Of a DNA stretch of 29,022 nt, positions 9,741 through 28,702 are shown one piece after another. The stretch is from positions 1 to 29,022 of the forward strand of contig CAYFWT010000013.1 of the NCBI GenBank assembly GCA_964346955.1, given 5' to 3'. A model generated the notes under the pieces. It worked only from the letters and a program-made list of their open reading frames with translations, was not told the origin of the DNA and made no database searches. Each line of letters begins with the position of its first letter. Position 1 is the first letter of the stretch. The DNA is from an uncultured Candidatus Saccharibacteria bacterium (GTDB lineage Bacteria; Patescibacteriota; Minisyncoccia; Portnoybacterales; UBA2143). The position numbers and the translations under genes were made by a program.

Positions 9741-11834
9741 TTATTCTGGCCAATCCTCAATCATCAGAAATTCCTTTTCCTTGAAAGGTAACTTTAAATA
9801 AATAGCTTCGGTAACAAAAGGCATAAAAGGATGAAGTAATTTTAAAGAATTCAATAAAACATAAGCCAAAACTTGTCTGGTTTGAGAAATATCTTGTTTT
9901 TTAGAAGCTTCAATATATTTGTCACAAAAATCGTGCCAGAAGAAATCATAGATTGAGTGAGCTGCTTGCCCAAAACGAAAATTCTCTAAGTCTTCGGTTG
10001 CTTTTCGAGTGGTTGTTTCCAATTGTTTAAGAATCTTTCTATCGGCTGGAGTGATTTTTGTTTGAAATTTGGAATTTGTAGTTTGTTTGTGATTTGTAAT
10101 TTGTAATTTGTTATTTCCGATTTGTCCTAAGACAAATCGGCTAGCATTCCATATTTTATTAGCAAACTTTTTCCCCATAACTATATTTTCTTCAGAGAAG
10201 CGGATATCCTGATTACCCAGAGCTTGATAAATCAAGCCAAAGCGAGTGGCATCGGCACCGTATTGGTTAACTAAGTCCATGGGGTCACGACCGGTACCTA
10301 AAGATTTACTCATTCGTTTTCCCTCCTTAGTTAAGATAGTAGCATGGATAATTACATCTTTAAAGGGTATTTTTTTAACTAATTCTAGCCCAGAAAAAAT
10401 CATCCGAGCTACCCAGAGATTGATAATATCTCGGGCAGTGACCAAGGTATCAGTGGGATAAAATTTCTTAAGATCACCAGTTGCCTTAGGCCAACCAAAA
10501 GTGGCCAAGGGCCATAAGGCTGAAGAAAACCAGGTGTCTAAAACATCATCAACTCCCTTAATTGGTATTTTATGTCCCCACCAAATTTGCCGAGAAATAC
10601 ACCAATCCTTGATATTATTTAGCCAGTCAAAATATACTTTTTCCCAACGCTTGGGATGAAATTTAATCTGGCCGCTTTTAACAGCTTTAATTGCCTGGGC
10701 GGCTAATTTATCCATTTTAAGAAACCATTGTTGACTAATTAGTGGCTCGATGTCGCTATGGCAGCGGTAGCAATGAGGAATTTGATGAGAATAATCTTCA
10801 GTTTTTTCTAAGAGGCCTTCTTTTTTTAACTCTTCGACGACCTTTTGACGGGCTTCTAAAACAGTTAAACTAGCAAATTTCTGGCCTGCCTGTTTAGTCA
10901 TTCGGCCCTTATCACTAATAACCTGAATCGAAGGCAGATTGTGCCTTGAGCCAATTTCTGCATCAGTTGGCGAATGGGCTGGAGTTACCTTGACTGCTCC
11001 GGTACCAAATTCTGGATCAACTAGTTGGTCAGTTACAATAGGAATTTCCCGATTAACCAAAGGTAAAATAGCTGTTTTTCCAATAAAATCTTTATACCTT
11101 TTGTCCTGTGAATGAACCGCCACCGCCGTATCGCCCAACATCGTTTCTGGTCTAGTGGTAGCTACCACAATATAATTTTTGATTTTTGGGTTTTGACTTT
11201 TGAGTTTGTATTTGATGTACCACAAATGACTCTTTTTCTCTTTGTATTCCAATTCCAAATCAGATAAACTGGTCTGGCATCTAGGGCACCAGTTAATTAC
11301 TTTTTCTCCCTGATAAATCCAACCCTTTTGATAATAATAAAGGAAGGCCGCCTTAACTGCTTCTTGATAGTCTTTATCCATGGTAAAGGCAGTCCGACTC
11401 CAATCGCAAGAGGCACCAAGTTTTTTTAGTTGTTCTAAAATTAAATGGCCATATTTCTTTTGCCAAGCCCAAACTTTTTCTAAGAATTTTTCTTTACCCA
11501 AATCGTAACGAGTCAACCCTTGTTTTTTCAGTTCTTTTTCGACCACGTTTTGAGTAGCAATGCCAGCATGATCAGTCCCCGGCAACCATAAAGTTCGATA
11601 ACCTTGCATCCGCTTTAGCCGGATTAAGATATCTTGGACAAAGGCATTGAGAGCATGACCCATGTGCAATTCGCCAGTAATATTGGGTGGGGGGATAGCA
11701 ATACTGTATTTTTTGGTTTTCTTTTCTCGGCTAATCGGTAGTTTGTCCGGATTAAAATAACCCGACCTTTCCCAGAGTCGGTAAATCCTATCTTCGTTGG
11801 CTTTTGGATTGTAGGTCTTAGGTAATTCTTTCAT
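9741..11834 (-). CDS. valS: Valine--tRNA ligase (short form without the C-terminal coiled-coil)
   Basis: HIGH motif PPPNITGELHMGHA and KMSKS motif KRMSKSLGT. The N-terminus MKELPKTYNPKANEDRIYRLWE aligns to E. coli ValRS MEKTYNPQDIEQPLYEHWE, so the ATG at 11834 is preferred over the track's TTG at 11852. It carries an in-frame repeat-derived segment (see 10061-10140). Confidence 0.9.
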   Translation of the reverse strand: MKELPKTYNPKANEDRIYRLWERSGYFNPDKLPISREKKTKKYSIAIPPPNITGELHMGHALNAFVQDILIRLKRMQGYRTLWLPGTDHAGIATQNVVEKELKKQGLTRYDLGKEKFLEKVWAWQKKYGHLILEQLKKLGASCDWSRTAFTMDKDYQEAVKAAFLYYYQKGWIYQGEKVINWCPRCQTSLSDLELEYKEKKSHLWYIKYKLKSQNPKIKNYIVVATTRPETMLGDTAVAVHSQDKRYKDFIGKTAILPLVNREIPIVTDQLVDPEFGTGAVKVTPAHSPTDAEIGSRHNLPSIQVISDKGRMTKQAGQKFASLTVLEARQKVVEELKKEGLLEKTEDYSHQIPHCYRCHSDIEPLISQQWFLKMDKLAAQAIKAVKSGQIKFHPKRWEKVYFDWLNNIKDWCISRQIWWGHKIPIKGVDDVLDTWFSSALWPLATFGWPKATGDLKKFYPTDTLVTARDIINLWVARMIFSGLELVKKIPFKDVIIHATILTKEGKRMSKSLGTGRDPMDLVNQYGADATRFGLIYQALGNQDIRFSEENIVMGKKFANKIWNASRFVLGQIGNNKLQITNHKQTTNSKFQTKITPADRKILKQLETTTRKATEDLENFRFGQAAHSIYDFFWHDFCDKYIEASKKQDISQTRQVLAYVLLNSLKLLHPFMPFVTEAIYLKLPFKEKEFLMIEDWPE
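10061..10140. repeat. Intragenic low-complexity repeat module plus a perfect 10 bp hairpin, inserted in-frame in valS
   Basis: TTTGAAATTTGGAATTTGTAGTTTGTTTGTGATTTGTAATTTGTAATTTGTTATTTCC is followed by CCGATTTGTC-CTAA-GACAAATCGG. It encodes ...QITNHKQTTNSKFQTKITPADRK... in the variable linker before the ADRxIL motif. It is the same motif family as the intergenic repeats at 21199-21313 and 22548-22640. Confidence 0.6.
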
Positions 11835-11961
11835 AAAGTATTCTCTGAGCAAGATCTGACGAAGTCAGGCCGCCTTGAAGGGCCCTAAGTGAAGCGGTCG
11901 CTCTAGGCGACCAGGGAGTTGAAGGGTAACTAGTATTTACTGTATAACAAAAATAATCTTT
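11835..11961 (-). promoter_or_regulatory. GC-rich structured 127 nt leader upstream of valS
   Basis: GC content is far above the local background. Hairpins include GGTCGC-TCTAG-GCGACC (11897-11913) and CTGAC-GAA-GTCAG (11856-11868). AGGGCCCT is a palindrome, and there are direct repeats GTTGAAGGG / CTTGAAGGG. Confidence 0.35.
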
Positions 11962-13089
11962 TTAGGCAACTAATTTTAAATTAGCCTGGGCTTGAATTTG
12001 GGACCAATCTTGTTTTTGACTAGCTTGAGTTCGATAAAAAGCAGTCGTGGCCACCATGGCTGCGTTATCAGTACATAAATTTTTTGGCGGGACTAGAAAA
12101 TTTAATTGACTGCTGACTGCGGAGAGCCGAGAGTTGAATTGTTTTCGCAACTGGTCATTGGCAGCTACCCCACCAGAAAGCATAATGCTTTTAGCTCTAT
12201 AATCTTTAGCTGCTTTAATAGTTTTAGTAATTAAAACATCAATGGCCGCCTGCTGAAAAGAGGCACAGATATCCGGCACTCTTAGGGACAGTCCCTGAGG
12301 GACAGTCCTTAAAGGACGCCTCAAAAGAGATTGTCCCTGTTTTTGCCTTTGTCCTTTTACCAAGTAAAGCACTGCTGTCTTCAGTCCTGAAAAGCTGAAA
12401 TCATAATTATGAGAGTTAATCATTGGTCGGGGTAGATTAAATGACTGGAAGTTGCCTTTTTGAGCTTTTTGGGAAATAATTGGTCCACCAGGATAACCTA
12501 GATTTAATAATTTAGCCACTTTATCAAATGCTTCTCCGGCGGCATCATCTCTGGTCTGGCCAAGTAACTTATACTTACCATGGCCTTTCATTAGAATCAA
12601 TTGAGTATGCCCTCCGCTGACCACCAGGCAGAGAGCTGGAAAAATATTTTTGGAAATTAGAAATTGGGAATTGGAAATTTCGCCAATTGGCTTTAGCCAA
12701 TTGGCGTAGATATGGGCTTCGAGGTGGTTTATGCCTAAAATTGGTTTCCGCCAATTATAAGCCAGGGCCTTGGCAAAATTAACTCCCACTAAAAGAGAAG
12801 GAATCAAACCAGGTCCAGTGGTCACCCCAATTAAATCAATTTTTGGATTTTTTGCTTCCTTAAGAGCAGTCAAAAGACAAGGTTCAATATTCTTTAAATG
12901 AGCCCGGGCAGCTAAATTAGGTACCACTCCACCAAAGGGAGCATGAATTTTTATCTGAGAAGAAACTACATTAGATAAAATCTCACAGCCTTGAGGGCTG
13001 CGGCATTTGACCAGGGCAATGCCTGTATCGTCACAAGATGTCTCAATTCCCAGGATAATCATAGATTTAGTATAACATAAAATATCCAC
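11962..13089 (-). CDS. tsaD: tRNA N6-adenosine threonylcarbamoyltransferase TsaD (Kae1/Gcp family)
   Basis: MIILGIETSCDDTGIAL, VSGGHTQL, DDAAGEAFDKVAKLL, FSFSGLKT and CTDNAAM blocks match E. coli TsaD. The probable true start is the ATG at 13062. It contains two repeat-derived in-frame insertions (12651-12706 and 12285-12340). Confidence 0.9.
   Translation of the reverse strand: MDILCYTKSMIILGIETSCDDTGIALVKCRSPQGCEILSNVVSSQIKIHAPFGGVVPNLAARAHLKNIEPCLLTALKEAKNPKIDLIGVTTGPGLIPSLLVGVNFAKALAYNWRKPILGINHLEAHIYANWLKPIGEISNSQFLISKNIFPALCLVVSGGHTQLILMKGHGKYKLLGQTRDDAAGEAFDKVAKLLNLGYPGGPIISQKAQKGNFQSFNLPRPMINSHNYDFSFSGLKTAVLYLVKGQRQKQGQSLLRRPLRTVPQGLSLRVPDICASFQQAAIDVLITKTIKAAKDYRAKSIMLSGGVAANDQLRKQFNSRLSAVSSQLNFLVPPKNLCTDNAAMVATTAFYRTQASQKQDWSQIQAQANLKLVA
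12285..12340. repeat. Tandem AGGGAC-N-GTCCCT palindromes with extra GGAC/GTCC half-sites, in-frame in tsaD
   Basis: AGGGACAGTCCCT (12285-12297) and AGGGACAGTCCTT (12299-12311), then AAAGGACGCC ... GTCCCTG ... GTCC. It encodes KGQRQKQGQSLLRRPLRTVPQGLSLRVPD, about 17 aa longer than the E. coli TsaD loop after FSGLKT. Confidence 0.6.
12651..12706. repeat. Intragenic low-complexity GGAAATT repeats plus a perfect 11 bp hairpin, in-frame in tsaD
   Basis: GGAAATTAGAAATTGGGAATTGGAAATTT, then CGCCAATTGGC-TTTA-GCCAATTGGCG. It encodes ...YANWLKPIGEISNSQFLISKNIFP..., about 11 aa longer than the E. coli TsaD loop between HHMEGHLLAP and VSGGHTQL. Confidence 0.6.
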
Positions 13090-14074: not shown

Positions 14075-14099
14075 AATAGTTCGACAAGCTCACTATAAA
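14075..14099 (+). repeat. 25 bp exact repeat AATAGTTCGACAAGCTCACTATAAA (copy 1); its inverted partner is at 21271-21295
   Basis: Perfect 25/25 reverse-complement match to 21271-21295. Copy 1 starts 2 bp after tRNA-Glu and ends 6 bp before the GT2 start codon. It contains the internal inverted pentamers ATAGT ... ACTAT. Confidence 0.85.
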
Positions 14100-21198: not shown

Positions 21199-21313
21199 AT
21201 TACAAATCCCAAATCACAAATCACAATCCTTCGACTCGGTCGTCTAAAGCGACCTCACTCAGGAAATAATTTTATAGTGAGCTTGTCGAACTATTGTTTG
21301 TAATTTGGAATTT
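21199..21313. repeat. Low-complexity inverted repeat (ATTACAAATCCCAAATCACAAATCACAA ... TTGTTTGTAATTTGGAATT) flanking a 67 bp core
   Basis: The arms lie at 21199-21226 and 21294-21313. The core contains the hairpin GGTCG-TCTAAA-GCGACC (21238-21255) and the 25 bp repeat copy 2 (21271-21295). Confidence 0.6.
21271..21295 (-). repeat. 25 bp exact repeat, inverted copy 2 (TTTATAGTGAGCTTGTCGAACTATT)
   Basis: Perfect reverse complement of 14075-14099. It lies 30 bp upstream of the pilN GTG start. Confidence 0.85.
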
Positions 21314-21324
21314 TATTTATTGAC

Positions 21325-22547: not shown

Positions 22548-22640
22548 GAAATCACAAACCACAAACCACAAATCACAAAACACAAACAGTTTGTAATTTG
22601 GAAATTGGAATTTGTTTGTAATTTGGTGCTTGTGATTTGG
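22548..22640. repeat. About 93 bp imperfect palindrome built from (CAAAYCACAAA)n / (TTTGTAATTTGG)n low-complexity units
   Basis: The left arm GAAATCACAAACCACAAACCACAAATCACAAAACACAAAC is nearly the reverse complement of the right arm GTTTGTAATTTGGAAATTGGAATTTGTTTGTAATTTGGTGCTTGTGATTTGG. Confidence 0.6.
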
Positions 22641-22720
22641 AATTTTATTTTACCGTGGCCTTTAGGCTCCGCTCTAAAGAATCCATACTTTTTCCTCAAG
22701 AAAGGAAACAGCAGAAGCTA

Positions 22721-26653: not shown

Positions 26654-26777
26654 TGACAGCAAGGCTGTCATCCTGAGGGCGAAGCCCGAAGGATCCCGTT
26701 CTATAACCACGAGATCCTTCGCTAATGCTCAGGATGACAATTTTGTTGCCAAATCAAAGATTTGGACAAAATTGTCA
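26654..26777 (+). promoter_or_regulatory. GC-rich spacer with three overlapping, mutually exclusive hairpins, ending at the pilC start
   Basis: H1: TGACAGC-AAG-GCTGTCA (26654-26670). H2: GTCATCCTGAG ... CGAAGGATC / GATCCTTCG ... CTCAGGATGAC (26667-26738), with an internal GGC-GAA-GCC. H3: TGACAATTTTGT-TGCCAAATC-AAA-GATTTGGACAAAATTGTCA (26735-26777). H1/H2 and H2/H3 share bases. Confidence 0.45.
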
Positions 26778-28566: not shown

Positions 28567-28702
28567 ACAGCCTGATAGCCAAGAACCCAGCTCTTTCTAA
28601 GAATTTGTTAGTTTTTCAATTGCTGTTAAATCGGTGCTATTTTCTTGTCTCAATAGAACTAACAAGCTTTTAGAAAGGGCTGGGTTAAGGTTGTCAGGCT
28701 GT
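28567..28702 (+). terminator. Long imperfect inverted repeat (about 47 nt arms, 42 nt loop) after pilA, followed by a U-rich tract
   Basis: The arm ACAGCCTGATAGCCAAGAACCCAGCTCTTTCTAAGAATTTGTTAGTT pairs with the arm AACTAACAAGCTTTTAGAAAGGGCTGGGTTAAGGTTGTCAGGCTGT (perfect segments of 9, 6, 8 and 9 bp), then TTTGTATATTGT. Confidence 0.4.

Follow-up and report, generated by a model that had tools for sequence, protein, structure and literature searches.

The window, by which we mean the whole stretch of DNA analysed here, is an entire contig of 29,022 bp (CAYFWT010000013.1) with a G+C content of 39%, and the closest named relatives of its proteins belong to Candidatus Portnoybacteria and other Parcubacteria, within the Patescibacteria. 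On the minus strand it carries valS (9741-11852), encoding valyl-tRNA synthetase (ValRS), and tsaD (11962-13062), next to which lie prsW, hsp20 and vanW, and this gene order is retained in relatives. The subject of this report is a repeat module found in frame in both valS and tsaD, which in gene orientation consists of a perfect hairpin followed by an array of tandem 7-nt units. Tandem arrays were detected with Tandem Repeats Finder (TRF), and the two modules comprise:

10057-10116, minus strand: in-frame heptanucleotide array in valS (TRF: period 7, 8.4 copies of TTTGTAA at 10061-10116)
10117-10140, minus strand: perfect hairpin in valS, 10-bp stem and 4-nt loop, reading CCGATTTGTC-ctaa-GACAAATCGG on the plus strand
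12650-12680, minus strand: in-frame heptanucleotide array in tsaD (TRF: (TTGGAAA)x4.3 at 12650-12679)
12681-12706, minus strand: perfect hairpin in tsaD, CGCCAATTGGC-ttta-GCCAATTGGCG, 11-bp stem and 4-nt loop

An earlier note, made by a model from the letters of the window, had described in-frame repeat runs with perfect hairpins of 10-11 bp in both genes, and direct reading, TRF and an inverted-repeat scan confirmed this description. The modules are translated, as the note had held, being in frame and free of stop codons. The coding strand of the valS array consists of ACAAATT/ACAAATC-type units and encodes ..NNKLQITNHKQTTNSKFQTK.. in the linker downstream of the RFVL motif, and the AATTTCC-type units of tsaD encode ..EISNSQFLISK.. 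in the loop downstream of the HxxxH-YANW motif. The inserts had been said to lengthen these loops relative to E. coli, and the E. coli TsaD segment quoted for that comparison agrees with what we take to be the E. coli TsaD sequence. Against proteins of known structure the gain is about 12 aa in each case: the linker after RFVL is about 12 aa longer than in Thermus thermophilus ValRS (1GAX), and the tsaD module amounts to a 12-aa insert relative to Thermotoga maritima TsaD (6NAK). In an AlphaFold2 (AF2) model of TsaD the mean predicted local distance difference test score (pLDDT) is 89.9 overall, with the insert modelled as coil and falling below 50 at residues 129-136; the inserts are thus predicted to be disordered loops. 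In each hairpin, read in the sense of the gene, the 5' arm encodes a conserved motif of the protein, S-R-F-V in ValRS and Y-A-N-W-L in TsaD, while the complementary 3' arm encodes G-Q-I-G and K-P-I-G-E, respectively. The inverted-repeat scan scores the tsaD hairpin as 12 of 12 positions complementary with a 2-nt gap. RNA folding, which the earlier note had proposed as a check, gave predicted energies of -17.4 kcal/mol for the valS hairpin (z -5.7 versus shuffles) and -19.4 kcal/mol for that of tsaD (z -5.2).

To place these modules among relatives we used 126 loci (882 kb) of Parcubacteria near Portnoybacteria, which came mostly from one metagenome pattern scan anchored on a tsaD motif and in a few cases from exact-protein look-ups. 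The controls were 69 loci from outside the Candidate Phyla Radiation (CPR), obtained by a contig scan with a TsaD alignment that drew on universal motifs, and mostly distant (at most 53% identity among the matches listed); 11 loci of other Patescibacteria lineages formed a third comparison set. Relatives contain 225 arrays of period 7 versus at most 22 for any other period from 4 to 12. The density of period-7 arrays in the clade is 255/Mb, or 143/Mb when the tsaD loop, whose motif had selected the loci, is excluded, as compared with 12/Mb in the non-CPR controls, 21/Mb in AT-rich non-CPR controls and 120/Mb in the other Patescibacteria lineages. The clade therefore carries period-7 arrays at about 10-20 times the density of other bacteria. 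The window itself holds four arrays of period 7, two of period 6 and none of period 5 or 8-11.

That the repeats are an assembly artefact or ordinary AT-rich low complexity might be suspected of AT-rich sequences in a metagenome-derived contig, and the earlier note had called for a check on misassembly. Independent assemblies (NCBI, JGI, ENA and Logan) show these features as well, reading frames are kept, the enrichment is confined to period 7, and AT-rich non-CPR controls lack a comparable abundance of arrays. Judged against dinucleotide-preserving shuffles, the unit motifs are also in excess within the window: TTTGTAATTTGG (at most 2 mismatches) occurs 20 times versus 7.5±2.5 and GGAAATTGGAAATT 9 times versus 1.2±1.1, which disposes of a motif without copy-number excess. 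This explanation we consider effectively refuted.

The arrays lie largely in genes. Outside the tsaD loop, 100 of 126 (about 80%) are inside open reading frames (ORFs) of at least 90 aa, among them several sites each in loops of TsaD and ValRS as well as other, unidentified ORFs. Their sense strand is composed of 52% A, 24% T, 16% C and 8% G, a bias to be expected because heptamers are read in all three frames and any stop triplet in the unit is fatal. The same protein positions were struck repeatedly, with different units in each lineage: in ValRS before ITVATTRP and after RFV, CDKYIE and GWP, and in TsaD after SCDDTCVAI, after ELRKQF and before CTDN. Such recurrence with varying units argues for an origin in situ at permissive positions and against one transposing sequence. 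Three further features of this kind in the window had been missed by the earlier note:

11177-11207, minus strand: second heptanucleotide array in valS (TRF: period 7, 4.4 copies)
about 12283-12357, minus strand: second low-complexity insert in tsaD (TRF: period 14 at 12286-12317)
12077-12103, minus strand: decayed third hairpin in tsaD, AAATTTTCTAG-TCCCG-CCAAAAAATTT, about 9 of 11 pairs

The second valS array, made of CAAAAGT/CAAAAAT units, encodes ..KLKSQNPKIKN.. upstream of ITVATTRP; the segment is missing in two relatives (L081, L084), and arrays of other units occupy the site in five (L138, L142, L162, L188, L204). Relatives likewise have different content at the site of the first valS array, and the DNA of the tsaD array is conserved in L081 and L084. 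The second tsaD insert, which is 17 aa long relative to 6NAK and modelled at pLDDT 71-75, begins with AAGGCAA-type units and continues with two copies of a nearly palindromic 14-nt direct repeat, GGACTGTCCCTNAG, together encoding KGQRQKQGQSLLRRPLRTVPQGLSL. The decayed hairpin encodes ..NFLVPPKNL upstream of CTDN. At this third site (FLVPPKxF before CTDN) perfect covarying hairpins occur in about 14 of 66 relatives, for example AAATTTTTGG/CCAAAAATTT versus AAATTTCTGG/CCAGAAATTT, with stems of 10-11 bp in L088, L150, L168, L171, L183 and L190 and usually with an array immediately before them. In six relatives (L094, L096, L109, L140, L197, L203) GC-rich perfect hairpins are nested in frame within the heptamer arrays of the tsaD loop, such as TCTGGCTTCGCCAGA..TCTGGCAAAGCCAGA and CCCCCTCACCAAAATTTGGTGGGGAG, with two tandem copies in L096.

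In about 96 of 99 tsaD loop sequences the frame is open through the insert, and translational bypass of the inserts was rejected on this ground. The other three (L089, L131, L184) have lost the frame or contain stops inside repeat-derived inserts; a sequencing error, a pseudogene and a slippage variant are all possible in each case. Protein-level selection for the low-complexity peptides, which might for instance serve an episymbiont as flexible or heptad-like loops, would make the DNA periodicity secondary. Some array-derived segments are indeed now conserved, such as IPNTKYLIPDTKY before CTDN in many TsaD proteins, and three heptamers specify exactly seven residues. The near-perfect periodicity of the DNA and the varying unit at one site, however, indicate recent expansion at the DNA level, the peptides differ freely among close relatives, the inserts are predicted to be disordered and the same arrays abound between genes. 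Selection on the peptides is thus scarcely likely to be the explanation.

The earlier note had further stated that the same unit family builds three intergenic palindromes, and these are present at all three places:

1339-1463 (arms 1339-1357 and 1433-1463), plus strand: intergenic palindrome between the methyltransferase and solute-binding-protein genes
21199-21318 (arms 21199-21226 and 21295-21318), plus strand: palindrome in the intergenic space that separates pilM from the next pilus gene
22548-22650 (arms 22549-22587 and 22590-22650), plus strand: intergenic palindrome after pilO

In the first, (AATTTTC)n and inverted (GAAAATT/GGAAATT)n flank a 75-nt core (predicted RNA fold -30.1 kcal/mol, z -3.2); in the second, an (ACAAATC)n arm is followed by a branched hairpin core that is richer in GC and then by (TTTGTAA/TTTGGAA) as the inverted arm (-32.5 kcal/mol, z -5.0); in the third, the (AAACCAC/AAATCAC)n arm directly adjoins its inverted counterpart, (TTTGTAA/TTTGGAA)n (-23 kcal/mol, z -2.3). 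All five structures, two coding and three intergenic, fold better than their own shuffles, and TRF also reports period-7 arrays at 21202-21226, 22549-22587 and 1433-1463. The second and third palindromes, which both lie in the type IV pilus operon, have both arms in common (86% and 92%). An exact 24-nt dispersed repeat, ATAGTTCGACAAGCTCACTATAAA, is found at 14076-14099 (plus strand), just after tRNA-Glu, and at 21271-21294 (minus strand), in the core of the pilM-pilN palindrome; its 13-mer TTCGACAAGCTCA occurs also in L053, L077 and L118.

[quoted passage not shown] The shared arms in the pil operon and the GC-rich hairpins nested in the arrays of relatives would fit such an element, and in-frame palindromic elements have a precedent in Rickettsia (PMC10969869). 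On the other hand, one arm of each hairpin consists of the gene's own conserved codons and is not imported, units vary by locus and by lineage at one site, and no consensus extends beyond low-complexity periodicity, similarity being confined to the periodic arms. None of 205 loci has a match to a 15-nt tail found in the intergenic copies, the annotated ORFs (10 of the 33 in the window) include no transposase linked to the modules, and reading of the modules, with no dedicated test made, revealed neither terminal inverted repeats nor target duplications. Such an element is quite improbable. The suggestion of a "mobile or recombination-prone simple-sequence element" made in the earlier note is supported only in part: the arrays are slippage-prone, as a one-unit variant described below indicates, and a discrete mobile element finds no support, there being no full-length consensus and the units differing by lineage. 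A recent insertion is not supported either, for both hairpins are old and conserved (99 tsaD loop sequences; 120 ValRS homologues). The protein segments are not conserved in all relatives either; the array part turns over and the hairpin persists.

The tsaD hairpin region was read in 99 distinct loop sequences. Pairs were counted on 91 of them, the pattern used to find the loci having forced 3 of the 11 pairs; 86% of cells are paired, a share that drops to 15-39% once the partner is displaced by 1-3 columns. Double changes occur in 73 cells versus 27±6.6 in shuffles, and none of 500 shuffles reaches 73. One pair position uses four Watson-Crick types (CG 28, UA 24, GC 11, AU 3). The wobble base of Ala in Y-A-N-W is paired with the first base of the second codon past Pro: GCC is matched by GGC (Gly), GCT by AGC (Ser), GCG by CGC (Arg) and GCA by TGC (Cys). 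Similarly, the Asn codon AAT is accompanied by ATT (Ile) and AAC by GTT (Val). Because the arms covary by complementarity, a synonymous site in the conserved motif decides an amino acid of the loop. Where at least 8 of the 11 pairs of the tsaD hairpin are retained, the mismatches are G·T in 21 cases, A·C in 35 and others in 33. This lack of G·U tolerance on the sense strand points to a property of double-stranded DNA and away from a selected mRNA structure, and structure in the sense RNA was rejected on this ground.

The valS hairpin behaves similarly. A stem of at least 7 bp with covarying arms is present in 12 of about 22 ValRS DNAs, where the partner codon has A as its last base if the conserved arm specifies Val (GTN) and G if it specifies Ala (GCN). 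Among 120 ValRS homologues with 62-83% identity RF[VAS]L.QIG is the commonest form, and the QIG right arm is widespread. A second register with the centre moved by 1 nt (RF[VI]LxNKP) exists on the same conserved arm, which suggests repeated formation of the inverted copy. In the closest relative, whose ValRS is 83% identical, the valS hairpin has been kept and is followed by a different, GC-rich insert, and the tsaD loop is without the hairpin motif. Perfect stems of at least 10 bp are abundant in the relatives' loci (435 versus 9 in shuffles), with densities of 291/Mb in coding DNA (138/Mb without the tsaD loop) versus 46/Mb in other bacteria and of about 2,070/Mb in intergenic DNA versus 540/Mb, although only ratios between groups are reliable because the counting script may score one hairpin under two loop sizes.

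A change of array length was caught in one relative. L206, an ENA assembly of a Portnoybacteria relative, has exactly one CAAATTC unit (+7 nt) more in its tsaD loop array (L206:760-960) than L207, L208 and L209, from which it does not otherwise differ over 190 nt. The extra unit shifts the frame and splits tsaD into two ORFs of 164 and 196 aa; the variant may represent a minority haplotype, a pseudogene or a phase variant. Across relatives, differences in loop length begin below about 90% flank identity, most pairs differ below 80%, and multiples of 21 nt are enriched among the differences (21 of 70 versus 10 expected).

Heptameric simple sequence repeats (SSRs) are over-represented in bacteria, which has been ascribed to polymerase slippage (PMC4692102), and template switching creates and maintains perfect inverted repeats and mimics compensatory changes (PMC5941160, PMC8794818). 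We therefore propose, with a probability of roughly 0.55, that the modules are two by-products of DNA copying, unusually frequent across Patescibacteria and sieved by the reading frame and by what loops tolerate; that slippage and template switching generate them, and that the products are neutral, is what we infer from the patterns described. Heptanucleotide microsatellites would arise and change length by replication slippage, and short perfect inverted repeats would be created by intrastrand template switching, their stems staying perfect as a change in one arm is copied into the other. Both products would persist wherever harm is small. Between genes, inverted arrays could build long AU-rich hairpins. 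Inside genes, survival would be limited to permissive surface loops located where domains end, to the stop-free orientation with the A/C-rich strand as sense and to frame-preserving lengths, and the surviving repeats would be translated into disordered low-complexity extensions of loops in TsaD and ValRS. A fold-back copy would first add the complement of the adjacent conserved codons, so that one arm would always be native coding sequence. This arm (ANW, RFV) would remain constrained and the other, in the free loop, would passively track it, with its amino acids dictated by complementarity, while the array beside the hairpin would turn over by gain, loss and homogenisation of units.

Several observations weigh against this proposal. 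The tsaD hairpin retains the same register and 4-nt loop across relatives whose TsaD is about 55-70% identical to that of the window, and synonymous sites are strongly bent to keep the pairing: the Pro codon is CCA in 80% of the hairpins versus 27% genome-wide, and codon 16 has C as its third base in 82%. How deeply the hairpins are conserved, their unchanging register and the overriding of codon choice would look the same under mutational upkeep and under selection and do not tell the two apart. Arrays can be detected in 31 of the 51 tsaD loop sequences that have at least 10 of the 11 pairs, in 8 of 22 with 8-9 pairs and in none of 16 with at most 7, an association confounded by lineage and G+C content; arrays found only where the hairpin is intact could reflect a mechanistic or functional coupling and not a shared tolerance. 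Outside the hot spots a hairpin lies within 30 nt of 14 of 126 arrays versus 7.8% of random windows, an association too weak for a general coupling of arrays with hairpins. Loop length never differed in 37 pairs with at least 98% flank identity, so that slippage is not fast; hypermutability of the arrays was rejected for this reason, and high instability is not borne out. The possible double counting of hairpins belongs with these points.

The hairpins could accordingly be functional DNA or RNA elements within the coding sequence, kept by selection for processing, pausing, replication or recombination, with the arrays as a side effect or a part of them. The deep conservation, fixed register and strong covariation, the overriding of synonymous choice, the recurrence of one architecture at three sites in two adjacent essential genes, the co-occurrence of intact hairpins with arrays and the stable folds all agree with this possible, though tentatively held, explanation. 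It is less easily reconciled with the absence of G·U tolerance on the sense strand, with the two registers in valS and with hairpins that have decayed in several lineages and are absent from tsaD of the closest relative. Moreover, more than 100 other perfect hairpins lie at unrelated coding positions, which a mutational bias fits better than many separate functions would. Rfam and tRNA scans of the window returned five tRNAs only and no family at the repeat sites. A terminator role was rejected, as neither coding hairpin is followed by a U-tract. The modules might also be selected nucleic-acid devices, in which the hairpin, a conserved DNA or RNA structure whose upkeep overrides amino-acid identity, would position a slippage-prone 7-nt tract and so let tsaD and valS be turned off and on by frame, as a contingency switch for growth arrest of an episymbiont, or would serve as a processing or pausing signal. 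This we regard as unlikely.

Some other observations were made on the window and on one further locus. At 26654-26751, between two genes on the plus strand, there is a nested palindrome (TGACAGCAAGGCTGTCATCCTGAGGGCGAAGCCCGAAGGATC...GATCCTTCG...CTCAGGATGACA) that is GC-rich and seems to represent a separate, GC-rich kind of palindromic repeat between genes. At 28567-28702, close to where the contig ends, a long imperfect inverted repeat has 30-nt arms that are 87% complementary and nested in 14-nt arms. In L213 (20453-22049) a gyrA-like gene with a match to an intein-splicing domain adjoins the syntenic methyltransferase and solute-binding-protein genes; the window holds the C-terminal gyrase domain only (70-771).

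If the proposed origin is true, 7-base microsatellites and perfect hairpins, 3-20 times denser than in other bacteria and reaching essential genes, constitute a distinctive mutational signature of Patescibacteria. This would account for many odd low-complexity insertions and for some apparent frameshifts and split genes in metagenome bins of the CPR, and heptamer arrays and hairpins within genes should be heeded by gene callers and in alignment-based phylogenies. It would also provide a clean natural case in which the synonymous sites of one codon fix the amino acid of another through DNA complementarity, show how permissive protein loops get found and filled, and connect genome architecture with reduced repair repertoires in a way that can be tested. 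A literature search of incomplete coverage found no account of such repeats for the CPR or Patescibacteria.

Among known systems, phase-variable contingency loci resemble the modules in having an SSR unit that is not a multiple of three within an ORF, and one natural +1-unit variant here shifts the frame. The genes concerned are, however, essential housekeeping genes (tsaD, valS) and not surface, virulence or restriction-modification genes, and the arrays, of 3-8 units, are short and do not vary at 98% identity or above. Analogies with diversity-generating retroelements (DGRs), integron attC sites and hairpins of the insertion sequences IS200/IS605 were dropped, as one arm is native coding sequence and variation proceeds by indels and unit turnover, not by A-specific mutagenesis or an exchange of cassettes. 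In Nostoc, small dispersed repeats that sit within heptamer arrays were reportedly described by Elhai and colleagues in 2008; the GC-rich perfect hairpins nested in the arrays of relatives are similar, whereas the two coding arrays of the window have none. RPEs and in-frame MITEs are likewise found between genes and in frame in unrelated housekeeping genes, where they are tolerated in surface loops. RPEs, however, measure about 100-150 bp and have a family consensus and a conserved encoded peptide (PMC10969869), while the repeats described here have no element consensus or defined ends, and consist of locus-specific microsatellite units and of hairpins of which half is native coding sequence.

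Closer parallels are the heptanucleotide SSRs, namely the short tandemly repeated repetitive (STRR) sequences of cyanobacteria and, in Xanthomonas and Nostoc, the GGGAATC/GGGGAYT repeats (Mrazek 2007, cited in PMC4692102). Common to both are tandem 7-nt units in at least about 2.5 copies, over-represented at period 7 in particular, a frequent occurrence as inverted pairs where co-directional genes adjoin, variation in length and sequence among relatives for which slippage has been proposed, and whole-unit changes in copy number, here one additional unit in L206 relative to L207-L209. The present units differ in being A/T-rich, not G-quadruplex-forming and of many sequence variants, and the host is a member of the Patescibacteria. 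The Xanthomonas and Nostoc repeats have been described as lying chiefly between genes, with a depletion in coding DNA, which characterises the known cases without defining them, whereas here about 80% lie in ORFs, including those of essential genes. Template-switch inverted repeats share with our hairpins the perfect stems, short spacers, excess over random expectation and orthologous conservation with changes in both arms. The hairpins described here depart from them in a coding density about 3-6 times that of the other bacteria sampled and in straddling, in essential genes, the boundary between conserved codons and a variable loop, and because of this position the amino acids of one arm are set by the synonymous sites of the other.

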